Notes under the pieces: model-generated
Seen by the model: the letters and a program-made list of their open reading frames with translations, nothing else
What the model was told of the DNA's origin: nothing
The model's database searches: none
In this document: positions 28,394 to 48,403 of the stretch, one piece after another
Layout: the number at the start of each line of letters is the position of its first letter
Position numbering within the stretch: the first letter of the stretch is position 1
Source: a virus
Taxonomy: Duplodnaviria > Caudoviricetes
Length of the DNA stretch: 64,000 bases
Virus record (IMG/VR): IMGVR_UViG_3300016471_001002
Coordinates: 96,001-160,000 of that record
Strand: one strand, 5' to 3'
Translations under genes and position numbers: made by a program

Positions 28394-28578
28394 GAGTTGG
28401 TGATCTCGTTCTCTACACCAATCCCCAGAGGATGATCTCCCCCACACTCGGGATAATCACCGAGGAACACCACAACATCTCAATCGATCACCGTTTCTTC
28501 TCCGTTCTACTCCACAATGGTAGGAAACAAATCATCTCTGATCACTACCTCTCCCTCCCCGGTGAAAATCCACCGTAG
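28390..28578 (+). CDS. Small SH3/KOW-like protein
   Basis: RVGDLVL, LGIITE. Confidence 0.6.
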   Translation: MRVGDLVLYTNPQRMISPTLGIITEEHHNISIDHRFFSVLLHNGRKQIISDHYLSLPGENPP

Positions 28579-28597
28579 GATGATTTAGGATAACATC
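28563..28597 (+). promoter_or_regulatory. Promoter TGAAAA-N17-TAGGAT-N6-ATG
   Basis: Conserved geometry. Confidence 0.6.
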
Positions 28598-28813
28598 ATG
28601 AAGAACAAAAGAGGGCATCACTACTTCATTTCCTCCACCAAATCAGGAAAGATTCTTGCCCAAAGCGGGGAGAAAGGTGATGTGGAGAAGTTCTCCGAAA
28701 CATGGATTCGAGAATCTCCCCATTATGATCCAGGTGATCCAATCATCATAGAGAAGGTTACCGTGGATTGGGATGGTTTCAAAACCTCAAAAAAGATCAT
28801 CAAGGAATATTGA
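28598..28813 (+). CDS. Hypothetical protein
   Basis: 71-aa ORF behind promoter. Confidence 0.55.
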   Translation: MKNKRGHHYFISSTKSGKILAQSGEKGDVEKFSETWIRESPHYDPGDPIIIEKVTVDWDGFKTSKKIIKEY

Positions 28814-28816
28814 ACA

Positions 28817-29068
28817 ATGCCGCTCTATAGAGTAACATTCCATACAGAAATCCTCATCGATGCCCGTGATGAACGTGAGGCCGAGAGGATTGGGGATAGA
28901 AACCTAGAATCCGAGGTTAGGAACTGTGGATCCGAGGTGTATCGGATTGAGGAATTGAATTCCGTGGATCAACTCCGAAGGGCAGAGAGGGGTTCCTTAC
29001 CTTGGAGAGCAACGGAGAGAAGAGGGGAACCTGAGCTACTGGTGGAAGAGATTCTGGGAGGAAAGTGA
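28817..29068 (+). CDS. Hypothetical protein
   Basis: 83-aa ORF in chain. Confidence 0.6.
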   Translation: MPLYRVTFHTEILIDARDEREAERIGDRNLESEVRNCGSEVYRIEELNSVDQLRRAERGSLPWRATERRGEPELLVEEILGGK

Positions 29069-29071
29069 ACC

Positions 29072-29437
29072 GTGGGTACAAACTATTATCTCCACCAAAA
29101 ATCAACCTCGATGTGTGAACACTGTGGGCATGACCCCGGTGCCAAGGTGTTACACATAGGAAAATCCTCCTATGGTTGGTGTTTCTCCCTTCACATCATT
29201 CCTGAGGAAGGTATCAATTCCTTGGATGATTGGAAGTTGGCCTGGGATAAACCTGACACCAAGATCCTCAATGAATATGATGAGGTTGTCCGGCCCGAGG
29301 ACATGTTGAAGATCATCACCACTCGTGGCCCTGGAAAATGGTCACCTGAGGGAATGGATCCACAGAGACATGATGGGGATCACTGTGTTGGGCATGGAAA
29401 TGAATCATATGATCTTATCATTGGGGAATTTAGTTGA
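29072..29437 (+). CDS. Conserved phage hypothetical protein
   Basis: MGTNYY...LHIGKSSYGWCF pattern recalled from diverse phages. Confidence 0.65.
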   Translation: MGTNYYLHQKSTSMCEHCGHDPGAKVLHIGKSSYGWCFSLHIIPEEGINSLDDWKLAWDKPDTKILNEYDEVVRPEDMLKIITTRGPGKWSPEGMDPQRHDGDHCVGHGNESYDLIIGEFS

Positions 29438-29438
29438 G

Positions 29439-29473
29439 TGCAAAACACCGTGAGGGGATGATATACTGGTAAC
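29439..29473 (+). promoter_or_regulatory. Promoter TGCAAA-N17-TATACT-N6-ATG
   Basis: Conserved geometry, extended -10. Confidence 0.8.
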
Positions 29474-29686
29474 ATGGAGATCATCCGGGTACATGAACTT
29501 CAGGTTGGAAAACTGTACCGTTGGAATGAGTACATGGGTGATCAAGATGAGATCTTCATGGTGGTTGGAAACCCCATCGATGGAGTATCTCAGGATGTTC
29601 ACTATGTGGAAGTAATTTCCAGTAAGTTTTCCCACAATAAAATGATGGTTTTCTCCTCCGATCGATTCAACGAGGTGATGGAATGA
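29474..29686 (+). CDS. Small SH3/KOW-like protein
   Basis: LQVGKLYR, FMVVG, VEVI. Confidence 0.55.
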   Translation: MEIIRVHELQVGKLYRWNEYMGDQDEIFMVVGNPIDGVSQDVHYVEVISSKFSHNKMMVFSSDRFNEVME

Positions 29687-29910
29687 AGCCCAGTTCCGGT
29701 ATGGTTCCAGGTGTTCTGGTTAGAAACCGTTGCTATATGCATTTTTATCTCACCGCGGAAAGTGTTAACCGTGGAATTCCGAAGGAAGGAATTCCTATGG
29801 ATTCCATCAGTACTGTTCTCACCCCGCCTAACGGAACCTGGATCAAGGTTCTGTGTGATGGTAAGATCGGCTGGGTTAACTGGACCCTGTGGCTTGAGGT
29901 GATCCAGTGA
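29683..29910 (+). CDS. Small SH3/KOW-like protein
   Basis: PGVLVR, KVLCDGKIGW, LEVI. Confidence 0.6.
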   Translation: MKPSSGMVPGVLVRNRCYMHFYLTAESVNRGIPKEGIPMDSISTVLTPPNGTWIKVLCDGKIGWVNWTLWLEVIQ

Positions 29911-30098
29911 AACCAGGTGATCTGGTTAGGTTAACTCGTTTCGATGAGATACCTTTCATTGGTGTTTATCTCGGCCCATCCAATAGATTTGATGAGAAGA
30001 GACAACCTTATGAGGGGAGGTTCGTGTTGAACACCGGAATCATTAAAGATGTTGATTTCGGAAACCATTTGGTTTGGAACTTCGAGGTGATGAAGTGA
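29907..30098 (+). CDS. Small SH3/KOW-like protein
   Basis: KPGDLVR, IGVYLG, FEVM. Confidence 0.6.
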   Translation: MKPGDLVRLTRFDEIPFIGVYLGPSNRFDEKRQPYEGRFVLNTGIIKDVDFGNHLVWNFEVMK

Positions 30099-30283
30099 AA
30101 CTATCTCTCGGTGATATGGTTTTCGTGAGGGATTCTCTCTTTGTTCCTCCAACAAAACCGTTAATCATCATTGATATCTACAAGGTAGGGCTTTCTTCGT
30201 ATCCCTACTTCGTGGTTGTGGATCCAAACACCGGTGAAAAGTTTACTTACCAGAAACACGATCTTTCGGAGGATCCTCTGTGA
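30095..30283 (+). CDS. Small SH3/KOW-like protein
   Basis: GTG start, LGDMVFV, LIIID. Confidence 0.55.
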   Translation: MKLSLGDMVFVRDSLFVPPTKPLIIIDIYKVGLSSYPYFVVVDPNTGEKFTYQKHDLSEDPL

Positions 30284-30486
30284 GTTTTTGTGTTGGTGAT
30301 TTACTCCTCGTGGCACCGGGTTCATATGTTCCACCGGGTGGAAGATATTCCCAGGGGATTGTTTTATCTGATCCTGATCCAGGTTTCCGTACCGTGTATG
30401 TGGCCTGGTATGATGGTAAGATCACCCAGGAATTGGTGAGTAACCTTTTGAAATCCTACGTGAGGATCACCAATGATTCTAGGTGA
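30280..30486 (+). CDS. Small SH3/KOW-like protein (close paralogue of 28021..28218)
   Basis: VGDLLL, VPPGGRYSQGIVL. Confidence 0.62.
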   Translation: MSFCVGDLLLVAPGSYVPPGGRYSQGIVLSDPDPGFRTVYVAWYDGKITQELVSNLLKSYVRITNDSR

Positions 30487-30697
30487 TCTTCTCCAGGCAA
30501 AGAGTAAAATCCAGGTTGGTGTGGTTCGGATCTACAGGGAGCCCCAATGTGATTCATGGGAAACACACACGATAAAGGGTGAAACATTCCTTCTATTGGA
30601 GGAACACAAGAATCAGTGGGGCCAGGATGTTTGTAAGGTTCTATTTCCCTGGGGAATCCGTTGGGTTTACCGGTTGGATGTGGAGGTGGTGGAATGA
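30473..30697 (+). CDS. Small SH3/KOW-like protein
   Basis: ILGDLLQ, CKVLFPWGIRW, VEVV. Confidence 0.6.
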   Translation: MILGDLLQAKSKIQVGVVRIYREPQCDSWETHTIKGETFLLLEEHKNQWGQDVCKVLFPWGIRWVYRLDVEVVE

Positions 30698-30885
30698 AAA
30701 GGGGAACCTTGGTTCGATTCAACGTTTCCATCTATTCTGATTGGGGTTTGGGGATTCTCCTCGGTGAGAAACCGATTGTGGATAGAGAAGGTAGGAATCA
30801 CCGTGGATTTTATGATGTTTTAACCCAGTGTGGAGTTAAACTAGTTTCCAGTGAATACTTTGAGAGGTTGAGTTGGGATGTTTAG
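30694..30885 (+). CDS. Small SH3/KOW-like protein
   Basis: KRGTLVR, LGILLG, DVLTQCG. Confidence 0.6.
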   Translation: MKRGTLVRFNVSIYSDWGLGILLGEKPIVDREGRNHRGFYDVLTQCGVKLVSSEYFERLSWDV

Positions 30886-31111
30886 CATTGGTGATTTGGT
30901 GAGGATGAAGAAAGTTTATAGTTCCACACCACTTTTTTCCACCTGGGGAAACAAGGAAGGTGGTGATAAACCCATTGGAACCATTCAACCAGGTGAGATC
31001 GGTGTTGTTCTTGAAACAACCCAACCTCGAGGTGGAAACGGGGCACGGATCATGGTATCCGGTGGGAAGATCGGTTGGGTTAATCTTATTTTCCTGGAGA
31101 ATGAAACATGA
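30878..31111 (+). CDS. Small SH3/KOW-like protein
   Basis: SIGDLVR, EIGVVLE, GKIGWV. Confidence 0.62.
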   Translation: MFSIGDLVRMKKVYSSTPLFSTWGNKEGGDKPIGTIQPGEIGVVLETTQPRGGNGARIMVSGGKIGWVNLIFLENET

Positions 31112-31308
31112 AACCTGGGGATCTTCTCAAATTCATCCATATTGTTGATCTAATGGATCCGATTTACCGTGAATCCGGGTGGAAGTTTGGGATCTACCTG
31201 GAGCACAAAAACATTAAGTTCAGTGGTGAAACCATAAAGGTTATCGATTCCGACGGGAAGATAAACCACTATCCTCAGGATTCATATCATTTCCAGGTGG
31301 TGGAATGA
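31108..31308 (+). CDS. Small SH3/KOW-like protein
   Basis: KPGDLLK, FGIYLE, FQVV. Confidence 0.6.
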   Translation: MKPGDLLKFIHIVDLMDPIYRESGWKFGIYLEHKNIKFSGETIKVIDSDGKINHYPQDSYHFQVVE

Positions 31309-31478
31309 TTCCATCTCCAGGTGATTTGGTAAAAGTGAAAGGCTACAGAACAGATTCACTCGGGTTGATTATCGATATTCAAGGTGGAACTGGTTTGTAC
31401 CGGGTTTGGTTGCTCGGCCAACCTGATCTCTATAAGGTTTTCCGGTATTCCAAGGAGATGTTGGAGGTTGTGGGGTGA
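31305..31478 (+). CDS. Small SH3/KOW-like protein (57 aa, absent from ORF track)
   Basis: Translated by hand: MIPSPGDLVKVKGYRTDSLGLIIDIQGGTGLYRVWLLGQPDLYKVFRYSKEMLEVVG; overlaps both neighbours. Confidence 0.6.
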   Translation: MIPSPGDLVKVKGYRTDSLGLIIDIQGGTGLYRVWLLGQPDLYKVFRYSKEMLEVVG

Positions 31479-31660
31479 GAAACAATGATATCCCCAGTAT
31501 CAATCAGGTGGTACCTGGATCCCTGGTTATCCACCGTTACACCCCTGAGATCGGTGTGGTTCTCCGCGTTTCCTGGAACATGGTTGAGGTTCTACTTGGA
31601 AACTCCACCGTGAAGTGGGAGATGAATGGATTCAGAAGTACCTATAGGAATCTCCAGTGA
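31475..31660 (+). CDS. Small SH3/KOW-like protein
   Basis: VPGSLVI, EIGVVLR. Confidence 0.58.
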   Translation: MRNNDIPSINQVVPGSLVIHRYTPEIGVVLRVSWNMVEVLLGNSTVKWEMNGFRSTYRNLQ

Positions 31661-31884
31661 GAATCGGTGATATGGTTCAACTCAGCCCCTCCCACAAGAG
31701 TTACGTTAACATGTATGAGGAGGATGATCTGAACCGAATAGAGAACGGTGAAAGGTTCTACCGGAATGATATAGGATTGGTTCTGGAGAGCCAAGGGAAC
31801 GGGGAATACATCCACTTCAAGGTTTTAACTCCCCGCGGGGCAATGGGGTGGATCCATAACTTCCACCTGGAGTTGGTGAGATGA
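31657..31884 (+). CDS. Small SH3/KOW-like protein
   Basis: RIGDMVQ, DIGLVLE, KVLTPRGAMGW, LELVR. Confidence 0.62.
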   Translation: MRIGDMVQLSPSHKSYVNMYEEDDLNRIENGERFYRNDIGLVLESQGNGEYIHFKVLTPRGAMGWIHNFHLELVR

Positions 31885-32084
31885 AACCCGGAGATTTGGT
31901 TTTAATCTCCGCGGATTTTCTGGAACCACATGAACCCCGTGTGGGGATATTCTGGAGTGATAAGGTTCCACTGGATGAATGGGGAGATCAGGTTGCAGGT
32001 GAGTGTGATTGTATCGTTTTCTGGAACGAAGATTTCATTCCTTTCATATGGGAAAACCTAACACTCCTCTCGGAGGTACCATGA
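31881..32084 (+). CDS. Small SH3/KOW-like protein
   Basis: KPGDLVL, VGIFW. Confidence 0.6.
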   Translation: MKPGDLVLISADFLEPHEPRVGIFWSDKVPLDEWGDQVAGECDCIVFWNEDFIPFIWENLTLLSEVP

Positions 32085-32272
32085 AACGGGGTGATCTGGT
32101 AAAAATCACCCATCAAAAAACAGGAGAGGGTGAGGTGGTGGTGTGTTACAAACCGGAGGTAATCAGGTGTTTCAATCACTATGGTTCTTATCATGGAATC
32201 CAGATGATCAATTCCAACGGAACCATTGTTTGTTACCCGGTGGATCGTTGGAGTTTTGAGGTGATCCGGTGA
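32081..32272 (+). CDS. Small SH3/KOW-like protein
   Basis: KRGDLVK, FEVIR. Confidence 0.6.
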   Translation: MKRGDLVKITHQKTGEGEVVVCYKPEVIRCFNHYGSYHGIQMINSNGTIVCYPVDRWSFEVIR

Positions 32273-32472
32273 GAGTTGGAGATCTAGTTCGTTTCCGAAC
32301 CGGGAGGAAACTAATCACCAGGGATATCACCTGGGATACAGGATTGATACTTGAGATATTCCTCGATGATTTTGATGGGGGAGATAAGTGCAAAATTCTG
32401 GATTCCAGTGGTAGAATTAAATGGATTCGTTCCCATGGAACCGAGGTATTGAACCACAATGAAACCTGGTGA
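32269..32472 (+). CDS. Small SH3/KOW-like protein
   Basis: RVGDLVR, TGLILE, KILDSSG. Confidence 0.62.
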   Translation: MRVGDLVRFRTGRKLITRDITWDTGLILEIFLDDFDGGDKCKILDSSGRIKWIRSHGTEVLNHNETW

Positions 32473-32707
32473 TATGGTTAGTGTGAAGGATGGTGATAAA
32501 GGTAACACCTACTGGTTATACCATCCTGAATCCCCAATTACCATTAACCTCATCCCCACCGATATTCGGTTTGGATTCTCAGATACCGGTTTGATATTGG
32601 AATCCCATGTGAACACTGGGATGTACCCTTACGCAACCTTCCTCAAGATTCTCACCCCTCGGGGAATCGGTTGGGCAAATGAGAATTGGGTGGAGGTTCT
32701 ACTGTGA
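32459..32707 (+). CDS. Small SH3/KOW-like protein
   Basis: KPGDMVS, DTGLILE, KILTPRGIGW. Confidence 0.62.
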   Translation: MKPGDMVSVKDGDKGNTYWLYHPESPITINLIPTDIRFGFSDTGLILESHVNTGMYPYATFLKILTPRGIGWANENWVEVLL

Positions 32708-32973
32708 AACCTGGATCACAAGTTCGTTTAATTCCTGAGTTGGAAGGTAACGAGGATTACAAGATCCTCTGGGATGATCCACCGGATTTCACTTCAATCT
32801 ACAGGAAGAACCACACCGGGAGGTTCCGTTACACCGAGGTTGGAATGGTTCTTGAACAAAGATATGTTTCCGATGATAACCTACCTCTTCACGTTCAAAC
32901 CACCTGGATCAAGGTTCTATGTTCCTCAGGAATCGGTTGGATTAAAAGATGTGATCTGGAGTTGGTGAGATGA
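32704..32973 (+). CDS. Small SH3/KOW-like protein
   Basis: KPGSQVR, EVGMVLE, KVLCSSGIGW, LELVR. Confidence 0.62.
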   Translation: MKPGSQVRLIPELEGNEDYKILWDDPPDFTSIYRKNHTGRFRYTEVGMVLEQRYVSDDNLPLHVQTTWIKVLCSSGIGWIKRCDLELVR

Positions 32974-33176
32974 AGATCGGAAATCTTATTCGAATCACTC
33001 GGTTCTTCAAGGATTGGAAGATCAACACCACCACCGGTGTTCTACTACATTTTTGCCCCGTGGAACCAATCAAGGATACCCATAAAAAATCTTTCAATAT
33101 TCGGATGTTGGAAACCAACGGGGAAATTCAGGATTTTATTCTGGTTCCGGAGGATGGGATTGAGGTGTTGGGGTGA
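32970..33176 (+). CDS. Small SH3/KOW-like protein
   Basis: KIGNLIR, TGVLL, IEVL. Confidence 0.6.
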   Translation: MKIGNLIRITRFFKDWKINTTTGVLLHFCPVEPIKDTHKKSFNIRMLETNGEIQDFILVPEDGIEVLG

Positions 33177-33370
33177 GAAAACCAGGTGATATGGTTCGAA
33201 TCTCCTCCAAAACCGATGGTGATATTGATGGAAAACTTGCCACCGTTATCGAGCATGTGGATGAGAACCTCCGTTCCGGGAGGATGTGTTACACCAAGGT
33301 TTTCCTCATGATTTCCGGGGTTCCTGTTTTTAGGTACCTCTGCCCGGATTCACTGGAGTTGGTGAGATGA
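33173..33370 (+). CDS. Small SH3/KOW-like protein
   Basis: KPGDMVR, ATVIE, LELVR. Confidence 0.6.
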   Translation: MRKPGDMVRISSKTDGDIDGKLATVIEHVDENLRSGRMCYTKVFLMISGVPVFRYLCPDSLELVR

Positions 33371-33594
33371 AAAATAGAACACTTTTATCTCTAGGTGATC
33401 CAGTTATTTGTACCCCTTTCAAATGGGAAAACAATCCTGAAGTGGATTCTCCACCGTTTGTGGGGATGTGGATGGGGAGTAGAAGGAATGAATGGAATCC
33501 ATCCGAATATAATGTTCTCGGCCCGGATGGGTTGGTTTGGTTGTGGAGTAACCGTTGGGCGGTGGAGAGGATCAATGAAACCGAACCTCGGTGA
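33367..33594 (+). CDS. Small SH3/KOW-like protein
   Basis: LGDPVI, YNVLGPDGLVW. Confidence 0.55.
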   Translation: MKNRTLLSLGDPVICTPFKWENNPEVDSPPFVGMWMGSRRNEWNPSEYNVLGPDGLVWLWSNRWAVERINETEPR

Positions 33595-33784
33595 GTTGTG
33601 GATGGTGAGTGATACCGTTAGGGTAACCGTTGGAAACAAGGTTGCAACTTTCCGCCTATCCGGGCCGGGTTTGGTGGTGAAAATCCATGAGAACCGCGAT
33701 GAATACGGAGATTATTACACCGTGTTCTGGGGTGGAAAAACATCGGAACTATTCCGGGATAATTTTGTGGAGAGGATATCTTGA
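33575..33784 (+). CDS. Small SH3/KOW-like protein
   Basis: LGELW, GLVVK, YTVFWGG. Confidence 0.55.
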   Translation: MKPNLGELWMVSDTVRVTVGNKVATFRLSGPGLVVKIHENRDEYGDYYTVFWGGKTSELFRDNFVERIS

Positions 33785-33981
33785 AATTATCTCCTGGAAA
33801 TCTAATCAGAATCTATCTCCTACCACACCGAGATGAGTTACGGAACGGTGGGATTGTTGTTGGGAAATCCAATGAATTCGGTTCTGATTTCTATGATGTT
33901 CTGGAACTTGGAACCGGGCGGATGATTTATGTTCCAGTGAACAGTATCGGGAAGAAGTATGAGATTGAGGTGTTTGGGTGA
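33781..33981 (+). CDS. Small SH3/KOW-like protein
   Basis: SPGNLIR, GGIVVG, IEVF. Confidence 0.58.
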   Translation: MKLSPGNLIRIYLLPHRDELRNGGIVVGKSNEFGSDFYDVLELGTGRMIYVPVNSIGKKYEIEVFG

Positions 33982-34241
33982 GTAAATTTAACCCCGGTGA
34001 TTCGGTTCGGATCAGATCTGATCCAAATCACCCAACGGATCAACATCGAATTTACGATTTCCCGGAGAAGATCCGCTGGGCTGGAGAATCCATAGTTCCT
34101 CGGAGTTTCATCGGTAAGGTTCCGGGTGGTTCAATTGGAATCGTGGTGGAGATAAAAGAGGAACAGTGTAAGGTTCTGTTTTTCGGTGGTGAGGTTTTCG
34201 GATGGGTGAGTGAGAACAAATTAGTTGGGGAGGCAGAGTGA
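33978..34241 (+). CDS. Small SH3/KOW-like protein
   Basis: FNPGDSVR, SIGIVVE, EVFGWV. Confidence 0.62.
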   Translation: MSKFNPGDSVRIRSDPNHPTDQHRIYDFPEKIRWAGESIVPRSFIGKVPGGSIGIVVEIKEEQCKVLFFGGEVFGWVSENKLVGEAE

Positions 34242-34257
34242 ATCTAGGAAAACTTTT

Positions 34258-35151
34258 TCAACCTTCCCGTTGAAGTTTTTCTAACCTTTTCTTTTCCCGC
34301 CCTAATCTCTGTTTTTCCTTCACCATTGCTCTATATTCAGGATTTTCCCACTGTTTCTTTCTTATTTCACTCATCTTTTTCCTGTGCTCAGGATCCTCCC
34401 ACATTTTCTTACTCGATTCAGAAATCTTTTCTTTATACTCAGGATCCTCCCACTTTTTCTTGCTGGATTCAGAAATCTTTTCTCTATACTCAGGATCCTC
34501 CCACTTTTTTTTATGTGATTCTCTCATCTTTTCTCTATATTCAGGATTTTCCCACTGTTTCTTTACTGATTCGCTTAATTTTCCCCTGCGTTCAGGACCC
34601 TCCCACACCTTCTTTCTAGATTTACTCATCTTTTCCTTGTGCTCAGGATCCTCCCACATTTTCTTTTGAGTTTCGCTCATCTTTTTTCTTTGTTCAGGAT
34701 CTTCACACCTTTTTTTATGTGATTCACGCATCTTTTTTTTGAACATGGGATCTTCCCACATCTTCTTACTTTTTTCCTGATGTTTTTTTCTTTGTTCAGG
34801 ATCTTCGAGCCTTTTTTTATGTGATTCACTCATCTTTTTTTTAACTTCTTCAGTGTACTTGTATCCTGAAACACCATCTCCACCAAGGGTAAAATTCGCT
34901 CCACCTTTTCCATGATGAACATATGTTTGAAGTTCCCCAATGAGTTGAATCTCTTTCTCAAATGATTCTTGCTCACTGCGAGTTTCAAAAACAATTTCTC
35001 TGATGATCCCATGCTTGTTTTTGATTCTTGTGTGAAGATGATTTCTTTCTAGATCTTTAACTCTACTTTCATCACCTTTCCCAACGTAGAAGGGCTTTCT
35101 ATCATCACCTCTGAAATCAACATACACGAAGAATTTCTTCTCAATTTCCAT
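34258..35151 (-). mobile_element. GIY-YIG-family homing endonuclease with ten 17-aa (51-bp) WEDPE repeats (NUMOD3-like)
   Basis: FVYVD...FYVGKG...R...E...N(FTLGGDG) nuclease pattern; repeat KKxWEDPEYREKxSES. Confidence 0.75.
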
Positions 35152-35281
35152 ATCAATAAATATACTCTAAGTACCTAAAAAGATAACAAAAACAATGGTT
35201 TTTGATAGGTTTTATGTAAATTTAAGGGATCATAGAGTAGAAAATTATAAGATTGAGAAGTTATAGTTTGTTCGGAGAAAA

Positions 35282-36922: not shown

Positions 36923-36934
36923 TAGGATGTGGTT
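36900..36934 (+). promoter_or_regulatory. Promoter TGCAAA-N17-TAGGAT-N6-ATG (within 3' end of the GT51 gene)
   Basis: Conserved geometry, extended -10. Confidence 0.7.
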
Positions 36935-37123
36935 ATGGATGTTGGTGATTTGTGTTTTACCAATTTCTTTGGTGAACCACACCGAGCGGGGATAATCCTG
37001 AGAGTTGGGTGGAATTCCTATGGGATTGTATCCTACCTAACCCTCCTCCCTGATGGGAAACAGGTTTATTTCCGCCCGGAACAAATCATCCTCCCCGAGG
37101 AGTTTCAAAAATATCATGAGTGA
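36935..37123 (+). CDS. Small SH3/KOW-like protein
   Basis: MDVGDLC, AGIILR. Confidence 0.58.
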   Translation: MDVGDLCFTNFFGEPHRAGIILRVGWNSYGIVSYLTLLPDGKQVYFRPEQIILPEEFQKYHE

Positions 37124-37442: not shown

Positions 37443-37485
37443 AATTCCTCCACCTCATGTGGTACCTTGATCAAGGAGAAGAAGG

Positions 37486-39463: not shown

Positions 39464-39483
39464 AAGAACAGAGATCTAAAAGA

Positions 39484-40449: not shown

Positions 40450-40489
40450 TACCATAAATATAAGTAAAGATAAGAAAAAAGATTCTTTT

Positions 40490-40518
40490 TGTAAATTTAA
40501 TAGAACCTTTGATATGGT
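40490..40518 (+). promoter_or_regulatory. Promoter TGTAAA-N17-TATGGT
   Basis: Motif variant; ATG of a 24-aa ORF 7 nt downstream. Confidence 0.55.
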
Positions 40519-40596
40519 TAGAAATATGAAACATTTAGAATTCTTCTCCGAGTTTCTACAACATGTTGGGGTGGAAATTGATGAGGAGGATGAACC

Positions 40597-42216
40597 ATGA
40601 AGAAAGTAACAAAGATCAAAAGATCACCTAGAATTGTTCAAAAGGTTGAGAATGAAGGGTGTGAAACCATCTATTGGATCGGTAATTCCGCATTCATTCA
40701 TTATGAGGATGAGGAAGGTAGTTCAGATAAGAAACATACCATTAGTACCGATGGTAGGTTTTATAGGGAAGTAGGAAGTTCCAGTTCACCAGATTCGGTG
40801 AGCATCACAGTTGTTTCACCAGATTTCACGATTATTAATTACTGCTACGAACCAATCCCTGAGGAACCATGAAGAAACTTAAGGTTGAGAGCATCCAAAC
40901 TGATCACAGGATTGAAAATGAATCTGATCTTGGTATTGCATTGAAACACCATAATCAGATGGCAAGATTGGGAGGATTGGTTCCTGATGCAATTGAACCA
41001 ATTGAGATCAACCTGAAGAATATCAAACTGGATTCTAATGGAAAACCTATTCTAACCATTGAAACGAAGGTGGGAGAAACTAATGAATAACATTGATCTA
41101 AGCGGTGTGTTTGATGGTGTAAAACCACAGGAGGATAACGTTCTTCCTCGTTTGGTTACCATGATCCAGGTTACGGAACCGATCCAGGAGAAGGATGTTC
41201 CAAAGAGATTGTTGGTAACCGTTAACGGTGGTGAGGTGATCAGGTACCAGAGCCTTTCCCACCTTCCGGTGGAGGTTGTGAGGGTGATCGATACACTTCC
41301 AGGTTTCGTGGGTTTCAATAAGGATATCCTCCTGGAAAAGATCGATAATCTCCGGAACGCGGTGGAGAATCTAAAAGTGGAGGAGGAACCATGAAGAAGA
41401 TCTTGGTGAATGATGGATTGAGGGAATTTCTTGATCCAAAGGAATTTTTTGTAAAGAGATATGATGAGAACATGAAGGAAGGAAACACCGAGTGTTTTGG
41501 GCTCCGCCAAACCGGGAGAACAACTCGGATGATTATTGAAACAATCCAGAAGGTTGTGGAGAATCCTGAATTAAAGTTCACCATTCTTACCCACAATTGG
41601 GATATGGTTCCTCGGATCATCCATGTGATGAACCACTATGCACACCAAATGGATGTTAAAATCCCAAATGATTCCATTAGTGTTGTTCCTGATGTGGAAC
41701 TTGGTTTCACCGGAGCAACAGTGTTGAGGGATAATGGAATCACCGATGTGAGAATCACCAAGGAATTGAGGGAGAAACCATGAGCGGAGATAATCAACCA
41801 GAAACAGTTTCGGTTCCTGTAACCCAACAGGATTTCATGGTGATCCGGGCATCACTTCACCACTCGATCTCATTCTGGGGCCATGCCCTGGAAACTGGGG
41901 AATATCCAGAAAACTTTGATGAAGGAAAAGCAAAGGAGATCCTCCAGATGAGCAGGGATGTTATCGAGAAAGTGAACATGATCTTAACCATGAAACCGAT
42001 TTCTTCCCAGAATGTTGGAGTTACACATTGAACCCAATCCCTCTATATTCTCCACCCCGATTCCCCAGGTTCTTCCGTTCAAAACCCGGTGAAATTAGTG
42101 AAGGTAGGTGTTGGTGTTGTTCCCACGGTGCTTATCTGTACATCGGAACTTCACTGTGGAACCTCATCTGGATCTTCATCAAAGAGTTTAAATCGGATCG
42201 GCATCTCGTGGGTTAA
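40597..42216 (+). other. Chain of six small hypothetical genes (40597..40872, 40869..41090, 41083..41394, 41391..41783, 41780..42031, 42028..42216)
   Basis: Consecutive stop/start overlaps, several ending EEP with GAGGAACCATGA junctions; 41391..41783 has a P-loop-like RQTGRTT. Confidence 0.6.
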
Positions 42217-42217
42217 G

Positions 42218-42252
42218 TGTAAAGTTCCGCGGGGTGATGATATACTAGAACC
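42218..42252 (+). promoter_or_regulatory. Promoter TGTAAA-N17-TATACT-N6-ATG
   Basis: Conserved geometry, extended -10. Confidence 0.8.
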
Positions 42253-42618
42253 ATGGAAACCAAGAAAACCCCTAAGAAACCAAAACACAAACACTTCTGG
42301 GAGTTTCATTCCTGGGTAAAAGGCCCAAAGAGCCCAAAGGATAACTACCAAACCTGGGATTTCGAGGTTGAATACAGGTGTTCCTGTGGGAAGAACCAAA
42401 AGGTTGAACCCAGTGAGGAAGAACTGAAACAATACATCAAGGATTCCATGTGTGATTACTGCGGTGAACTTCATGAACAACATGAGGATCCTCGTGAATG
42501 TATCACGGTTCTTCGAACCAAGGTGGTTGGGCTAGAGGATCGCCTGGAAAAACTAGAGGATCAAATGGATTCCATCCGAAGGGTGTTCAGGGATTCCGTT
42601 GATCGAGATCGATGGTGA
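42253..42618 (+). CDS. Hypothetical protein with CxC/CxxC motifs and coiled coil; no alanine
   Basis: RCSCG, MCDYCG. Confidence 0.6.
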   Translation: METKKTPKKPKHKHFWEFHSWVKGPKSPKDNYQTWDFEVEYRCSCGKNQKVEPSEEELKQYIKDSMCDYCGELHEQHEDPRECITVLRTKVVGLEDRLEKLEDQMDSIRRVFRDSVDRDRW

Positions 42619-42621
42619 ACC

Positions 42622-43071
42622 ATGAGGAAGAAGAAGATGGGATTTTACTCAACCAACTTTCAAGATTCGGAAGAGAACAACATCTCGATCCACTACTCAC
42701 CTGAATACAAGCAATTTTCGGTATCCATCACCGATGGGCACGGAGAAAGAACTAATTCAATTGAGATGGGTTATGAGGATCTCCGTTCTCTATTCAAAGA
42801 AGCCGAGAACATCTTCTTTCAACATGAAGGGTTGATTGATGATGAACGGAGTTTCCCAAAACCAAACACAGAGGATTGAATCATGAAAGCCAAAGTTACT
42901 GCTCGATACTGGGATTCTGAACTCCAATCCAGGTTTGGTTCATTTGATTCAATCCATAATTTTCCAAATGATACCGAAACATTCCTGAAGGAAGTTATGA
43001 AGTTCGGTAGGTTTGAAACGAAGTTGGAAGGTGATCTACTCACCCTTGAGTTCCAAAACGATTACGATTGA
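42622..43071 (+). other. Two small hypothetical genes (42622..42879, 42883..43071)
   Basis: Colinear ORFs with 3-nt gaps. Confidence 0.55.
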
Positions 43072-43074
43072 ATC

Positions 43075-43247
43075 ATGAAACCCGAGAAAAACTTCTTCTT
43101 CTCTGCCAAAAATTCATACGAGATAATGAGATAGGTTGTTCCGAATCCATCTACCAATCGGATAGGATCATCCTAAATTCACCGGATTTCATTCGTGAAA
43201 TTTGTGATCTGGTTGGTTACCATCAATTCGAGGAGGATGAAAAGTGA
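43075..43247 (+). pseudogene. Frameshifted small gene (one base missing in an A5 run near 43086)
   Basis: Adding one A gives MKPEKKLLLLCQKFIRDNEIGCSESIYQSDRIILNSPDFIREICDLVGYHQFEEDEK, whose stop overlaps the GTG of the next gene. Confidence 0.55.
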
Positions 43248-44452
43248 TTCTATATAATGATTACGAACAAGTTGAAACCTGGGAAGATCTTGATGATCTT
43301 GTGAAAAGGATGTATGGCCCCGTTCCAATCACCAACCGGATGGTAACACCTCATCTCCCCAAGGAATGGGATGAGAAGAACCAGTACCCCTGGAAGAACG
43401 GTGAACCAGTTCTATTCCTCGGTGAAGTGATTGGTATGCCAGGCCACGGTGTTTTTGTGGGTAAGGATGGCCTAGTGAAGTTTGGGTACCACACAGATTC
43501 CTTCAAGGTTATTCCAAAGGATGAACTATGAATCCCGATCAAAAATACCTGATCAAATACAAAGATCCCTTTGATTCCAACACCAAAAACCGATATTGGT
43601 TCAAGGATCATGAGGAATGGATTCCAGATCCAAGTGGAGCAACACTTTTTACTCAGGAAGGTGGTGTAAGAGAGGTTGGTAGGTTACTGGTGGATTATGA
43701 GTGGATCACAAAATTGATTCCCTCGGAGGAAATTCCAAAGGTAAAACCTGTTTCACCTCCAAGCGGGGATTTCATTCTCATTGTTGATTGTGATGGAGAT
43801 CCTCAGGAAGTTTTTGGGGGAAATGTAAACCTTGATCAGGTATTCCAGTTGATCGATAAACTGGATCGTGAATCAGGTTATCATCCACATTCCGCCTGGA
43901 GGAGGTGCGCAGGTGGATTTACTCGGGTGTTTGAAAGAATTGGAAAGGATCCAAAGTGAAAAACGAATCACTTGATTTTTTGGTGGAGAAGGGAGATATT
44001 GTTTTTTACACCTATGAAAATCTGGATGAGGAAGGTAATCCAGGTGAAGGTGAGTTTAGAAACACCGAGAGGTTAACCCTTCTATTTCCAAGTGGAAATA
44101 ATTTGATCCTGGATACGTGTTGTTCCGGTATGAATCAAAACACTGTTTTGATGATGGAATTATTGAAAGTAGATCCAAAGTGAAACTCGAGCAACTTGGG
44201 AGGGATACCAACGGAGGTATTTCCTCCCTTCCACAAATTAAATCAGGTAAGAACCGTGGTTTTAGAAAACCTGAGGTTGGTGGTAATTGGTTGTGTACCG
44301 GTGGTTATACCCACGATTCTCGGTGGGATGAGAAGAATGCCCACGGCTCATGGCTCACTTCCATGGAGAAAATCGGGTTCCGCACCGGAAAATATGAACT
44401 GGATGGGGTGGTTAACCTATATGTTTGGGTGCAAAATTCCGCGGGGGGATGA
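43244..44452 (+). other. Chain of four small hypothetical genes (43244..43531, 43528..43959, 43956..44183, 44180..44452)
   Basis: Overlapping starts/stops; two contain no alanine; two end KDPK/VDPK with the same GATCCAAAGTGAAA junction. Confidence 0.6.
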
Positions 44453-44464
44453 TAGAATAAAAAT
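44430..44464 (+). promoter_or_regulatory. Promoter TGCAAA-N17-TAGAAT-N6-ATG
   Basis: Conserved geometry, extended -10. Confidence 0.78.
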
Positions 44465-44752
44465 ATGAACACCACACCAACCCGAATCGATCTGGTTCAA
44501 CTCTGGATGGAAACCCACTTCAAGGGGATTCCCTGTGCTGTTTTCTTCGATCCTCTAGGGGATGGTGATAGAATCTCACTGTTCATCGATAAACTCGGAA
44601 TCTCCTGCGGAACAGGTATGGGGCAAATCATCAACTCCAACTTTCTCATCCTACCATCACCCAACCCAGATTCACTAGTGAACAACCTCAAACAAGACAC
44701 CTGGGGCTTCGCAATGAGCTGGAATGGAAACAATTTCACGAGTGAGAATTAA
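44465..44752 (+). CDS. Hypothetical protein
   Basis: First gene behind promoter. Confidence 0.55.
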   Translation: MNTTPTRIDLVQLWMETHFKGIPCAVFFDPLGDGDRISLFIDKLGISCGTGMGQIINSNFLILPSPNPDSLVNNLKQDTWGFAMSWNGNNFTSEN

Positions 44753-44768
44753 TAGATATTTAACCTCC

Positions 44769-45068
44769 ATGAAGATATCAATCAATCAACTCCGCAGGAT
44801 TATCAAGGAAGAAGTTCAAACACTCACCGAGGCAGGAGATCCAAACAAAATCAAGTTTGAAGAAATCAAACAATCACTGGTTGATTTCCTCCAATCCAAC
44901 GGTGAACTGGTTTCAGGTGATGTTGTTCTACAAGGAAATACCATCAAGTTCCACATCTATGATCAAGATGCCCCAGATCTTCAATCACAACCCAGAGTTA
45001 AGATAACCCTGGAACTAGAACCCAGCATGGCACAACTTCGAGATGAAAATCCAGAGGTTTTCCTGTGA
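44769..45068 (+). CDS. Protein with MKISINQLRRIIKEE leader
   Basis: Leader shared with 46918 and 47361; ATATTTA 6 nt upstream. Confidence 0.65.
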   Translation: MKISINQLRRIIKEEVQTLTEAGDPNKIKFEEIKQSLVDFLQSNGELVSGDVVLQGNTIKFHIYDQDAPDLQSQPRVKITLELEPSMAQLRDENPEVFL

Positions 45069-45084: not shown

Positions 45085-45393
45085 ATGTCGGGAGGAGCCA
45101 TTCACCCACAATACCTGTACTACCAGGTGAACCAATTCGCGGATGAACTTGAGAACCGAATCGAAAACAACAATGTTCCGGATGAATACGGTTATGCCCC
45201 AAACCTCCCGGATGATATCCTCGATTACCTAAAACTCCAGGTTTCCAACCTAAGGAAAATCTCCGAGGTGATGAGAGCAACGGACTATTTATTTGCTGGT
45301 GACCATGGACCCGAAAATTTTCTAAAGATCATTGAGAAAATTGAAAAAAGTATTCAGGCTCTACATCAGGTATTTGACTCAATTTCCTGTTGA
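45085..45393 (+). CDS. Conserved phage hypothetical protein
   Basis: MSGG...YLYYQVNQFADEL pattern; 3' end overlaps the antisense endonuclease. Confidence 0.6.
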   Translation: MSGGAIHPQYLYYQVNQFADELENRIENNNVPDEYGYAPNLPDDILDYLKLQVSNLRKISEVMRATDYLFAGDHGPENFLKIIEKIEKSIQALHQVFDSISC

Positions 45394-46340
45394 AGTTTTT
45401 TTAACCTTCTGGTTTCCCACCCCTTTTTAAGTCTCTCGCTTCTTTGCTCGGGTGTGAGTTCAGCTAATTTCGATTTTATAGATTCACTTGTTTTTTTCTT
45501 ATGTTCAGGATCCTCCCACAATTTTTTTCTTATTTCGCTCATTTTTTCTCTATATTCAGGATCCTCCCACGATTTTTTTCTTATTTCACTCATTTTTTCT
45601 TTGAACTCAGGATCCTCCCATTTCTTTTTGTTGGCTTCGCTTTGTTTTCTTTTGTATTCAGGATCGTTTCGTATTTTTTTCATTTTGTGATCCGGATTTT
45701 CCCAGGATTTTCTAATAGATTCTTTATGCTTTTCCTTGATCTCAGGTTTTTTTAGAGAATCTTTGATAGCTTCGCTGTGCTTCTTTAATAATTCAGGATC
45801 TTCCCAAACTTTTTGTTGTTGTTCACTGCATTTTTTTCTGAGTTCAGGGTCACTCCAAGTTTTCTTAAATGATTCACTCATCCTTTCCTTGAATTCAGGA
45901 TTCTCCCATTTCTTTCTTTTTGTTGCCTTCATTCTTTCTTTTCTATCCTGGTTTTCCCAAGATTTTTTTTGTAATTCACTCATCCTTTCTTTGAACTCAG
46001 GATTTTCCCACTTCTTTTTACAGGCCTCTCTTTGTTCTTCGTTCCATTTGTAGCCTGTTGTTCCATCTCCGCCAAGGGTAAAATTGGCACCACCTTCACC
46101 AAAATCAACATGGGTTTTTAGTTCCTGGATAAGTTCGACTTCTTTATCAAATGCCTCTTGTTGATTGATGGTTTCAAATAGGACTTTCCTAACCATGCCA
46201 TGCTTATTTTTGATTTTGGCGTGAAGAGGATTTCTTTTTGATTTTCTCACTCTACAATCTACACCTTTTCCAACATAAAAAGGTCTTCCATCATCCTCTC
46301 GATAATCAACATAAACAAAGAATTTTTGTTCGGTTTCCAT
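45366..46340 (-). mobile_element. GIY-YIG-family homing endonuclease with WEDPE repeats
   Basis: FFVYVD..FYVGKG..R..E..NFTLGGDG; about eleven 17-aa repeats; start placed at METEQ. Confidence 0.75.
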
Positions 46341-46515
46341 ATCCATAAATATGGAAAAAGATTATAAAAAGCCATATTTTTATATGGTTTCGTGTAAATT
46401 TTCAGATTTTTATATACTGTTTCTACTAATAAAAAGTATGAAGAATATTTCTGGCGATCATAACGAGTTAAGCTTCATGAAAACCATCGGGAAAATCGAG
46501 GCTGAAAAATAAATC

Positions 46516-46731
46516 ATGGAACTCCGCATCGGTGATCAATGCTCAATTTGGAACGGAAATTCATCCATCTCAGATTCACGAAACTGGCTCATCGGCATCG
46601 TGATGAAAAAGAAGAACCACAAATACTGGAATGAAACTCGATACCAAGTTTTCTGGCACGATTTGTTAAAAGATACTACGTGGTACACTGCGAATGAGAT
46701 CAAATTAGATGAAACTCGGTTCTCTCGTTAA
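46516..46731 (+). CDS. Small SH3/KOW-like protein
   Basis: LRIGDQC, IGIVMK, YQVFW. Confidence 0.58.
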   Translation: MELRIGDQCSIWNGNSSISDSRNWLIGIVMKKKNHKYWNETRYQVFWHDLLKDTTWYTANEIKLDETRFSR

Positions 46732-46900
46732 AATCCACCCAATCGATCATCTTTCACGTGAATTCCGCGGTGAACTTGGAACTCTATTAGATCTAGAGAT
46801 TCACAACTATCTCTCAGAGAAATTCTATTACGCAAAAGTGATGCTCCTCTCAGGGAAGATTATCTTCACCTCCCAAAATTCGCTGGAATTTATCAGTTAA
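46709..46900 (+). CDS. Small SH3/KOW-like protein
   Basis: KLGSLVK, LGTLLD, LEFI. Confidence 0.6.
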   Translation: MKLGSLVKIHPIDHLSREFRGELGTLLDLEIHNYLSEKFYYAKVMLLSGKIIFTSQNSLEFIS

Positions 46901-46917
46901 AGGTAATAATTACCCCT

Positions 46918-47187
46918 ATGAAGATCACAGTTTCACAACTCCGTAAAATCATCAAGGAAGAAGTTTCTAGAATTATTGAAGAGAATATCAACATTGATCG
47001 AATGGTGCTTGATGAACACTATGAGGTTTATCAGGAAACCACTCGTAGTGGTGCAATACTCTACAAGGTGAAGTTCACTGCACCAAAGGATCTTCCACGT
47101 TTCATTTGGGTGAATCCAAATGGTTCCTGGATTGGCAGGAATTCTAAAATGCTAAACGATGATATCGTTGCGAGTGGAAATTTTTGA
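46918..47187 (+). CDS. Protein with MKITVSQLRKIIKEE leader
   Basis: ATAATTA 5 nt upstream; may extend to 47267 via a -1 frame. Confidence 0.6.
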   Translation: MKITVSQLRKIIKEEVSRIIEENINIDRMVLDEHYEVYQETTRSGAILYKVKFTAPKDLPRFIWVNPNGSWIGRNSKMLNDDIVASGNF

Positions 47188-47271
47188 AATATGATGAAGA
47201 TAGATTCCGTAATGCCATCCAAAAGATTGAAGGCAAACTAACCTTTTTAAGGGTGATGAATAATTAATCCC

Positions 47272-47343
47272 ATGAAACTCACAACGGCACAACTCAAACA
47301 AATCATCTTCACCTCCCAAAATTCTCTGGAATTTATCAATTAA
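47272..47343 (+). pseudogene. 23-aa chimeric mini-ORF MKLTTAQLKQII/FTSQNSLEFIN
   Basis: Leader-family N-terminus fused to the last 11 codons of the SH3-like gene 46709..46900. Confidence 0.65.
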
Positions 47344-47360
47344 AGGTAATAATTACCCCT

Positions 47361-48107
47361 ATGAAGATTACCGTATCGCAACTCCGTAAGATCATCCGTG
47401 AAGAAGTGCAGAGGAACATCTCTGAAGCCAAGTTCAACGTGGGTGATAAGGTAGAGGAAAAAGGAACCGATTCCGGTTGGTGGGAGGTTCTAGAATTAAT
47501 TCCCGATAATAGAACAGGTAAAACCGTTGCCAAATTACAAATGTTTCAACCTGTGGGTGGTAGAACACCAATCACACACGTAACAACGGATAAACTTGCT
47601 AAAGTTAGAGAATCTCTATCACATCCAGGTTCTTCACCCCTGAAGGATGGTGGTGTTGTTAACCGTGAATCCGGAGAGATTCTGGTTATGGATAGTGTTC
47701 CTCCTCAATACCTCGATCACATTGAGGTTGATGAGATGGGTTATACCACACTTCCAAATGATAAGTTTGAGGAACTTCGTGGTGAATTGAAGGGATTATC
47801 CGCAGGGAAACCAAAGAAACAACGATTAGCACCCTTCCAACTCAACAAGGGATCCAAGGGTTTCAATGATTACATCCGGGATGTTGATAGGGATATGCCA
47901 ACCTCATGGGATTCTCCAGATCCTCAGGATGTTCACGATGAATTTCTTAAGTTAAGGGATTATGATGGTGAAGTTCCACTCAAAATGCTAGCGGCCGGCT
48001 TAGGGGTAGAACCCAACCAAATCGATTGGAACGGAACCGGTTTAAGGGTGATGAACGGTGTTGTTACTGAACTCATCGGCGATACCCCCTACAGAACCAA
48101 TAGGTGA
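47361..48107 (+). CDS. Protein with MKITVSQLRKIIREE leader, an SH3/KOW-like domain and unknown C-terminal region
   Basis: Leader then FNVGDKVE...WEVLE. Confidence 0.65.
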   Translation: MKITVSQLRKIIREEVQRNISEAKFNVGDKVEEKGTDSGWWEVLELIPDNRTGKTVAKLQMFQPVGGRTPITHVTTDKLAKVRESLSHPGSSPLKDGGVVNRESGEILVMDSVPPQYLDHIEVDEMGYTTLPNDKFEELRGELKGLSAGKPKKQRLAPFQLNKGSKGFNDYIRDVDRDMPTSWDSPDPQDVHDEFLKLRDYDGEVPLKMLAAGLGVEPNQIDWNGTGLRVMNGVVTELIGDTPYRTNR

Positions 48108-48143
48108 TCATCAGCACAAAAGGTAACCCACATTTAACTTTCG

Positions 48144-48178
48144 TGCAAAATACCTCATGGCGATGTTAAAATACCTCC
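48144..48178 (+). promoter_or_regulatory. Promoter TGCAAA-N17-TAAAAT-N6-ATG
   Basis: Conserved geometry, extended -10. Confidence 0.78.
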
Positions 48179-48403
48179 ATGGCTCCACAACTCGGTGATC
48201 TAATCCACATCATAAAAGATACCCACGGCTACCCAGATAACTGGATCCGCGGCACAGATCCAATCAGATTCCCAAACGGCTCCACTGGCATCCTACTGGA
48301 TATCAAACCTTCATCCACAGATGAACCACGAACCTTCTACAAGGTTGCCACCCCACAAGGCACGGTATCCATCTTCGAAGGCTTCACAGAACTCATCAAA
48401 TAA
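48179..48403 (+). CDS. Small SH3/KOW-like protein
   Basis: QLGDLIH, STGILLD, KVATPQG. Confidence 0.6.
   Translation: MAPQLGDLIHIIKDTHGYPDNWIRGTDPIRFPNGSTGILLDIKPSSTDEPRTFYKVATPQGTVSIFEGFTELIK

Follow-up and report, generated by a model that had tools for sequence, protein, structure and literature searches.

Here we describe, in a 64-kilobase (kb) window of DNA from a giant lake phage, a block of densely packed small genes (positions 27,985–48,604, + strand) from which the trinucleotides GAC and GTC have been almost completely purged and in which the dinucleotide GpC is strongly depleted. The window comprises bases 96,001–160,000 of a linear IMG/VR viral contig of 211,097 base pairs (bp) that is 65% complete according to CheckV, and all coordinates are window positions unless they are marked as genome or contig positions. 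The depletion is real, local and symmetric between the strands, and it is driven by selection, which is visible in codon choice, at codon junctions, in dipeptides, in alanine content and in promoters. It has two layers: a universal and near-absolute purge of the palindromic 3-bp word class GAC/GTC (hereafter GWC) and a graded, lineage-dependent purge of GpC. We tentatively propose that the block is an immunity zone for the genes that are needed first, directed against a factor that reads a 3-bp target at the level of DNA.

A block stripped of two short words

The block holds about 55 small genes on the + strand, arranged in about 7 transcription units of the same direction, and three homing-endonuclease genes on the − strand. 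Between 27,950 and 48,530, GWC occurs 31 times where about 430–590 occurrences are expected, and the longest GWC-free gap extends over 6,668 bp (38,028–44,696; P about 1e-61). On the left, GWC sites are dense until 27,942; a single site follows at 28,033, and the one after it lies at 29,132. At the right end, their density returns from about 48,536–48,831. GpC is reduced to 320 occurrences against 945 expected (0.34), with large differences between contexts: GGCC is spared (44 versus 43 expected; 1.01), GCGC has almost disappeared (1 versus 43), and GCC/GGC are the least depleted of the GC contexts. Throughout the remaining 190 kb of the contig, the word ratios are near 1.

When all 32 reverse-complement trinucleotide classes were scanned in 4-kb windows, GWC in the block was the sole extreme in the genome. 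Six-mer palindromes that contain neither GC nor GWC occur at 0.90–0.93 of expectation in the block and at 0.99–1.04 elsewhere; the target is specific, and general avoidance of palindromic sites is absent. The trinucleotides GAT, GTT, AAC, GGT and ACC are over-represented in the block, and the dinucleotides GT/AC are not in excess.

Our counts reproduce those of an initial annotation of the window, which had reported no GWC in 40,561–44,690 and 47,341–48,120, three sites in 29,401–31,300, 3 GpC against 18 CpG in 30,001–30,480 and a single GpC in 39,001–39,480. The four open reading frames that it had named as free of alanine (38,960–39,463, 42,253–42,618, 43,244–43,531 and 43,956–44,183) do lack this residue and write aspartate only as GAT. 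Its remark that the remaining GpC often sits in GGCC agrees with the sparing of that context, with the correction that about half of the GGCC sites in the block fall in one gene (35,282–36,922).

Selection acts on duplex DNA

The purge has bent the use of synonymous codons. GAC makes up 3% of aspartate codons in the block and 31% elsewhere, and GTC makes up 1% of valine codons in the block and 23% elsewhere, its place being taken by GTG as well as GTT. Alanine accounts for 1.9% of residues, compared with 6.7% elsewhere. Other C-ending codons (AAC, ATC, CAC, TAC, TTC, ACC and TCC) are favoured in the block, in which G+C content and third-position C are both higher than in the surroundings; C-to-T drift is thereby ruled out.

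Codon preference does not account for these deficits. In an own-codon null, synonymous codons were permuted among positions while the codon pool and the protein sequences of the block were kept; against this null, GWC words that span two codons number 12 versus 155 expected, G|C junctions between codons number 54 versus 181, and GGCC is raised to 40 versus 17. A second null, based on genome codon usage, gives 12 in-frame GWC words versus 170 expected. The two outcomes that the initial annotation had set out beforehand as contrary to its claim, namely counts that match a codon-shuffled null and a depletion that extends genome-wide, are therefore not what is seen, given that both codon-preserving nulls are rejected and the rest of the contig has ratios near 1. 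GATC was tried as a separate, enriched signal and discarded, as its excess follows from the choice of GAT and ATC codons and is not significant under the own-codon permutation; GATC is 2–3.5-fold and CCGG 1.4–2.1-fold above expectation in the block and in the corresponding blocks of five relatives introduced below (G1, G2, G3, L032 and L034).

The effect reaches the proteins themselves. Methionine or tryptophan followed by threonine is found 3 times versus 12 expected, and methionine or tryptophan followed by proline, histidine or glutamine 9 times versus 24.8 expected, with ratios of about 1.0 for both kinds of dipeptide in the remaining proteome; neither kind can be encoded without the purged words.

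The depletion is equal across all three reading frames. The k-mer composition of the block is shifted relative to other coding DNA on the + strand, and this shift is symmetric under reverse complementation (r of 0.96 for 3-mers, 0.92 for 4-mers and 0.82 for GC contexts); we conclude that the pressure acts on duplex DNA rather than on codons or on one RNA strand. Residual GAC and GTC stand at 41:25 (p 0.08), and two of the three − strand homing-endonuclease genes are as depleted as the genes around them.

The purged word is constant among relatives

The phage from which the window derives (G0) is a large myovirus with a T4-type large terminase, a portal, a major head protein and two sheath genes, and it also encodes DnaB, a DnaE-type polymerase and GroEL. 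Its large terminase shares 41% identity with the terminases of Flavobacterium phage immuto and Microcystis phage Mel-JY01 and is more distantly related to those of T4-like cyanophages and coliphages; a transglycosylase domain points weakly to a host among the Bacteroidota. One relative, G1, is complete (297,894 bp), is largely collinear with G0 and encodes a gp61/DnaG-type primase. When the block genes were compared, as DNA and as protein, with 50,697 phage records, no matches were found, and the isolates that are nearest by terminase contain no word-free block in the sequence covered (the first 50 kb of immuto and the whole genome of Mel-JY01).

Near the downstream end of the block, a gene for a protein of 248 amino acids (47,361–48,107, + strand; N-terminal tag MKIT..QLRKII.EE) has 106 metagenomic homologues and served as a marker. 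A similar tag, MKI(T/S)..QLR(K/R)II(K/R)EE, is common to the starts of three block genes (44,763–44,816, 46,912–46,965 and 47,355–47,408). We fetched the loci around 13 marker homologues, which represent 11 independent metagenomic loci (G1, G2, G3, L030/31, L032/33, L034/35, L036 and L051–L054). All of them fall within a GWC-free stretch or border on one, and the blocks range from 1 to more than 12 kb. Observed and expected GWC counts are 20 and 275 in G1 (56.8–69.2 kb, with an unadapted gene left out), 6 and 302 in G2 (1–11.9 kb), 2 and 157 in G3 (1–5.9 kb), 3 and 187 in L032/33 (about 6 kb) and about 11 and 270 in L053 (about 11 kb). In L030/31, two stretches of about 3 kb and about 2 kb have 1 site of 80 expected and 0 of 66, and L034 and L035 are depleted over the whole of their 12-kb and 8-kb loci (3 of 344 and 0 of 215, respectively). 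Only the first kilobase or so of L036, L051, L052 and L054 covers a block edge, with 0 of 27, 1 of 25, 3 of 23 and 12 of 29 expected sites. The blocks of these relatives have almost no 21-mers in common. No other purged word was found in distant relatives, down to 38–46% identity of the marker protein; the word is always GWC. In G1, as in G0, the scan of trinucleotide classes revealed no other extreme.

The GpC layer is more variable. Across blocks, GpC stands at 0.22–0.62 of expectation, and the tolerated contexts differ: GGCC is tolerated and GCGC nearly absent in G0, G1, G2 and L032, and in G3 (1–5.9 kb) and L034 it is CGCG and YGCR that are tolerated and RGCY that is most depleted. GGCC was considered as a universal safe context, which fails in G3 and L034. 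The RGCY depletion of these two is reminiscent of CviJI-type RGCY specificity. We read these differences between lineages as a second layer that would depend on the host.

GpC depletion can occur apart from the loss of GWC: an upstream array of mini-genes of the same kind (24,881–27,950, + strand) is poor in GpC (about 0.45–0.55) and normal in GWC. Block flanks with this combination are also present in G1 (69–75 kb), L051 (1–3 kb) and L054 (0–4 kb). Such flanks may be former block DNA to which the synonymous words, but not alanine, have returned, or GpC depletion may have a cause of its own.

The contigs of nine relatives (G2, G3, L030, L031, L034, L036, L051, L052 and L054; eight if the near-identical L030 and L031 are merged) begin or end in the block or at its edge. 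The block is thus a hot spot of assembly breaks, which probably arise from strain-level cassette variation. Close to their blocks, relatives have genes for a TnpB/Cas12f-like OrfB_IS605 protein, SIR2-domain and SET-domain proteins and a member of the histone-deacetylase family (L054, 7,006–8,226; L030, 6,665–7,414; L032, 14,322–14,714 and 19,982–20,534).

Promoter-like elements and the borders of the block

Repeat-family and regular-expression scans recovered a promoter-like element, GTGCAAA-N17-TAnnnT-N6-ATG, which predicts leaderless messages and occurs in 6–8 copies in the block and in more than 20 elsewhere in the genome. All copies in the block are on the + strand. The first (27,985–28,023) coincides precisely with the left border of the depletion, the second (29,438–29,476) directly 3′ of a GWC-containing gene (29,072–29,437), and the third (36,899–36,937) overlaps the end of a transglycosylase gene. 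The fourth (38,058–38,096) is also a junction of cassette variants, and the fifth (42,217–42,255) and sixth (44,429–44,467) were recovered by both kinds of scan. A tentative further element (46,392–46,418; GTGTAAA and TATACT), read directly in the sequence, has a spacer that is 3 nucleotides shorter and lies directly downstream of the homing-endonuclease-like gene at 45,366–46,346; the last copy (48,143–48,181) is placed ahead of the last fully depleted gene (48,179–48,403).

The same promoter class occurs in 15 copies in a high-G+C cassette array at 205–211 kb of the contig, where its consensus contains both GTC and GAC (GTGCAAAGTC...AAGACCATG). The copies in the block are variants that contain neither (AAGTT, GAACCATG), and the purge thus reaches non-coding signals. 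Scans for generic sigma-70 promoters and terminators gave no more matches than in shuffled sequences.

At the right border (48,600–48,672, + strand), the second copy of a 26-nucleotide element (GGTAACCCACATTTAMCTTTCGTGCA) is followed by a short hairpin and a run of T; the hairpin was found by eye and does not appear in the terminator scan. The hairpin and T run at 48.6 kb are a possible end of a transcription unit. The element itself, GGTAACCCACATTTA(A/C)CTTTCGTGCA, is present as an exact repeat at 48,122–48,147 and 48,600–48,625, flanking the last two small genes (0 expected by chance). From these signals, the purged unit appears to be transcriptional, extending from the first promoter-like element, on which the left border falls, to the 26-nucleotide repeat and its weak hairpin.

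Residual GWC sites cluster in three genes, each of which is directly upstream of a promoter-like element (those at 29,438, 36,899 and 46,392). By a hand count that involves only about 6 clusters, 27 of the 31 residual sites are no more than 1.7 kb upstream of such an element, compared with 54% expected. This is a hint that residual sites keep near promoters; the insertion of cassettes at promoters would look alike.

Metagenome contigs from the same study join 28,472 to 38,058, 30,476 to 31,666, 38,098 to 38,761 and 39,139 to 40,544, the third of these joints being present in three runs and two of the four lying at a promoter copy, which indicates that cassette-level variants of the block coexist.

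Recoded and unadapted genes

A gene on the + strand for a protein of 546 amino acids with a peptidoglycan transglycosylase domain (35,282–36,922; Pfam PF00912, E value of 1.4e-41) is partly recoded. It contains 8 GWC and 22 GGCC sites, compared with 33 and 3, respectively, in an out-of-block homologue (L001) that is 62% identical and has normal composition and ordinary alanine codons. Of its 17 alanine codons, 15 are preceded by G and 11 are written as G|GCC. As read from this comparison, neighbouring bases have been altered so that unavoidable GpC sits in a tolerated context; GGCC has been created rather than merely spared, and the survival of chance contexts is excluded as its source. The pattern identifies the gene as a later arrival and shows, at the level of sequence, that genes new to the block are recoded in place.

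Two genes are closer to the unadapted state. The gene at 29,072–29,437 (+ strand), which stands at the end of a transcription unit, has 6 GWC at near-normal density, and the homing-endonuclease-like gene at 45,366–46,346 (− strand; PHROG 314) accounts for 10 residual GWC when its immediate surroundings are included. Both look like more recent arrivals, the second being the least adapted of three paralogues. The initial annotation had listed the first of these genes and the endonucleases as partial exceptions; the endonuclease-like genes at 34,258–35,151 (− strand, 1 GWC) and 39,484–40,455 (− strand, 0 GWC) are depleted. The block of G1 likewise contains an unadapted gene, which encodes 393 amino acids on the opposite strand.

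The three paralogous homing-endonuclease-like genes carry tandem repeats of 51 nucleotides (17 amino acids), with up to 8 copies each (34,269–34,848, 39,612–39,936 and 45,437–46,049). These repeats may form a modular DNA-binding array.

Genome ends and the position of the block

Sequencing depth and termini were assessed from Logan contigs. In the two deepest runs, a contig that spans the left border (22,000–30,375) has a mean depth of 24.4, and contigs wholly within the block have depths of 24–27.5. As the depth inside the block equals that of the flank, the block is not a collapsed or doubled terminal repeat, and as a single contig spans the left border, this border is not an assembly break. 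In G1, the backbone genes on either side of the G0 block are separated by about 4 kb, and the block of G1 itself is about 90 kb away. Terminases of the T4 (gp17) type are classically tied to headful packaging of permuted genomes, and by analogy the terminase type suggests headful packaging in G0. The idea that the block is the first DNA to enter the cell is unsupported; the contig data are compatible with a fixed end at the border that carries a short repeat.

A proposed immunity zone and its rivals

The explanation that we favour, while holding it only tentatively, is an immunity zone for first-needed genes. A cluster of same-direction operons, made up of small and probably first-expressed genes, would be kept free of GWC on both strands and, save for lineage-specific contexts, largely free of GpC, so that a factor that reads a very short duplex target could not act on these genes. 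Candidates for such a factor would include a nuclease or nickase, a DNA-binding roadblock or silencer, and a site-specific modification that hinders the host polymerase. Immunity would matter until the phage has neutralized or outlasted the factor, and the rest of the genome could keep the word because it is protected in another way or is needed only later. A lethal nuclease is a poor fit unless entry is ordered: with only 10% of a permuted genome spared, the phage would still be lost, and 31 sites are tolerated in G0. Non-destructive action, such as a roadblock, a nick or adduct that stops a naive host polymerase, or a silencer nucleated by the word, would suit region-limited avoidance better, and the position of residual sites just upstream of promoter-like elements is compatible with such action, as it is with the insertion of new cassettes at promoter repeats. 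That GWC is the purged word in all lineages slightly favours a factor that is intrinsic to the phage or a very conserved host factor. We infer the existence of a discrete factor, its action on DNA (as opposed to a depletion that is a by-product) and early timing as the reason why only the block needs protection.

Several points weigh against this explanation. The difficulty with a lethal nuclease pushes the model towards a non-destructive factor or ordered entry, and the 31 residual sites of G0 show that single sites are not lethal. The presumption that the genes are early comes from their size, their arrangement and the promoter-like elements alone, and since the same promoter class fronts the GAC/GTC-rich array at 205–211 kb, promoter or temporal class by itself does not define the block. 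We know of no factor with a 3-bp GWC target, and none that reads GWC was identified in the phage genomes examined. Neither C5 and N4/N6 DNA methyltransferases nor TGT/DpdA were found in the genomes of G0–G3. The only ThyA-family enzyme (L038, 6,727–7,728; genome positions 87,726–88,727) matches the CMP 5-hydroxymethylase MilA at 1e-43, thymidylate synthases only at 1e-23 and the T4 dCMP hydroxymethylase at 1e-15, and is labelled thymidylate synthase in PHROGs; its gene adjoins genes for two NDP-sugar epimerase/dehydratases, a thymidine kinase and a dCMP deaminase. Hypermodification of cytosine in G0, giving DNA with sugar-modified hydroxymethylcytosine, is only a possibility on the basis of these matches.

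The initial annotation had suggested avoidance of a very short GWC or GC target in DNA that is exposed early. The avoidance itself holds up, being selective, present on both strands, evident at junctions and in amino acids and promoters, and accompanied by recoding in place; the early exposure is what lacks support. It corresponds to the logic of first-step transfer in T5 or of the leading region in T7, in which the block would wait at the entering end and be the only part of the genome exposed to a host nuclease. Such an arrangement would account naturally for avoidance that is confined to one block, all operons run in the same direction from the promoter-like element at the left border, and the block makes up about 10% of the contig, similar to the fraction in T5. 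There is also precedent, as only sites in the first-injected region matter in T5 and BF23 (PMC10644984) and, by the same rule, in murciaviruses of the Autographiviridae (PMC12455610). The terminase of G0 nevertheless belongs to the T4 (gp17) type and has matches that include T4-like phages, depth and contigs reveal no long terminal repeat and no assembly break at the border, the block is placed differently in the otherwise collinear backbones of G0 and G1, and palindromic sites in general are not avoided. We regard ordered entry as unlikely. Slightly harder to credit is immunity at the level of RNA, in which block transcripts without GAC, GUC and GC would survive an endoribonuclease (a MazF- or MqsR-like host toxin, or a phage host-shutoff RNase) until an inhibitor encoded in the block had been made. 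Toxin RNases with 3-nucleotide targets, and messages that lack these targets, are established (ACA for MazF and GCU for MqsR), the genome would remain undamaged, so that avoidance in one block of a permuted genome would be explained, the purged unit runs from the first promoter to a possible terminator, and residual sites lie at the ends of transcription units. The purged words, however, form a reverse-complement class (GAC/GTC and GC, with GGCC or CGCG tolerated), the symmetric k-mer shift (r of 0.92–0.96, and 0.82 for GC contexts) is not expected from a reader of RNA, promoter DNA upstream of the start point is purged too, and no RNase with a GAC, GUC or GC target is known to us.

A different role for the word would follow if GTC, read on either strand, were the trinucleotide of a DnaG-type primase, which would make the block a zone without start sites for Okazaki fragments. 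DnaG-type primases are the one well-studied class of enzymes that read trinucleotides; the T7 primase recognizes 5′-GTC-3′ (PMC2910064), and the specificity of bacterial DnaG is short and class-specific (PMC2978363). Among the genes of G1 is one for a DnaG/gp61-type primase, DnaB and DnaE are encoded by the phage, and if the target were set by an enzyme of the phage itself, the constancy of the word in the clade would be accounted for. GTC would be the site of this primase only by analogy with T7, though, and 20 kb left unprimed has no clear benefit. The depletion of GpC and its lineage-specific exceptions are unexplained, GCC/GGC (the analogue of the second site of T4) are the least depleted GC contexts, and the word is not enriched in the rest of the genome; we consider a primase-free zone improbable. 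The remaining two proposals of the initial annotation are largely refuted. Loss of C through methylation or deamination, that is, mutational decay in G(W)C contexts confined to the block, would fit the over-representation of GAT, GTT, AAC, GGT and ACC, but it is at odds with the higher G+C content, with the preference for C-ending codons other than GAC and GTC, with the lack of excess GT/AC, with the replacement of valine GTC by GTG as well as GTT, and with GGCC contexts built by changes in neighbouring bases. The borders are sharp and fall at gene or promoter limits, and avoidance at junctions and in dipeptides requires selection, so that decay is very improbable as the cause. Still less credible is acquisition of the block from a phage lineage that lacks the word genome-wide. 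Its distinct composition, its sharp borders and its different positions in the backbones of G0 and G1 would be expected of foreign DNA, but no relative is depleted genome-wide and each has one local block of its own; islands of normal composition lie inside blocks, the out-of-block homologue of the transglycosylase gene is of normal composition, genes that enter the block are recoded in place, and the promoter class is shared, in purged form, with the rest of the genome.

Comparison with known systems

The immunity zone that we favour would belong to a known kind of phenomenon, regional motif avoidance; what is new is that the word is so short, that it has been removed so completely and over such a distance, that proteins bear a cost, and that the same word is purged across a clade. 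A literature search for a GAC/GTC or GWC purge found no description and no published precedent. The first-step-transfer DNA of T5 and BF23 and the leading region of some Autographiviridae resemble the block in that avoidance is restricted to one early-gene region and sites occur freely elsewhere, and in the presence of small genes, which in those phages are takeover-type genes behind host-type promoters (PMC10644984, PMC12455610). Those cases concern restriction-modification sites of 5–13 bp, a known host and a mapped genome end or terminal repeat; in the block, by contrast, a 3-bp word and a dinucleotide are affected, hundreds of sites are gone over 6–20 kb at a cost to proteins, the word is constant across a diverged clade, there is no doubled repeat and the position is not conserved.

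The PeSL-type promoter–gene cassettes of hyperplastic regions in T4-type phages offer another likeness, with arrays of tiny genes, a repeated early promoter and exchange of cassettes at repeats. In sequence, the block has the corresponding features, with promoter-like repeats before small open reading frames and variant joints at the copies at 38,058/38,098. It departs from such cassettes in that the purge affects one array and leaves untouched another that has the same promoter class, and no word purge has, to our knowledge, been described for them. Phages and bacteria also avoid restriction sites and short palindromes throughout their genomes, which removes reverse-complement-symmetric words and bends synonymous codons, but such avoidance involves words of 4–6 bp and moderate depletion, compared with a local purge of a 3-bp word to 0–7% of expectation with effects at the amino-acid level. 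We know of no primase-free zone in any phage. The recognition sequence 5′-GTC-3′ of the T7 primase is the purged word of the block read on both strands (PMC2910064), and the depletion of GpC falls outside this analogy.

Implications

Region-limited avoidance has so far been known only for ordinary restriction sites of 4–13 bp in DNA mapped as entering first. In the block, over up to 20 kb, a 3-bp word class has lost about 95% of its occurrences and a dinucleotide two thirds. The accepted cost includes the near-loss of alanine and of certain dipeptides and the rewriting of promoters, and the pattern is kept in every relative examined. This implies a strong and conserved interaction of duplex DNA with a reader whose target is extraordinarily short. 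As a defence system or a phage weapon, such a reader would show a new type of specificity; in the case of a primase or a modification enzyme, the block would reflect an unknown rule of phage genome organization. A broader claim, which we consider possible but doubtful, is that a clade of T4-like giant freshwater phages keeps a word-free domain of 6–20 kb against a DNA-acting reader of the 3-bp word GWC, whether this is a defence of the host, a phage enzyme for host shutoff or modification, or the replicative primase, and that such domains, with different words in different phage groups, are general. If this is true, word-free domains would be a general and previously undescribed way to hide the genes that are needed first from such systems. 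The signature can be screened for, as any reverse-complement word class at less than 0.05 of expectation over at least 5 kb. The block also singles out about 55 orphan genes that are candidates for taking over the cell or countering its defences at the earliest stage, and it demonstrates that constraints at the level of DNA can visibly shape the composition of proteins.

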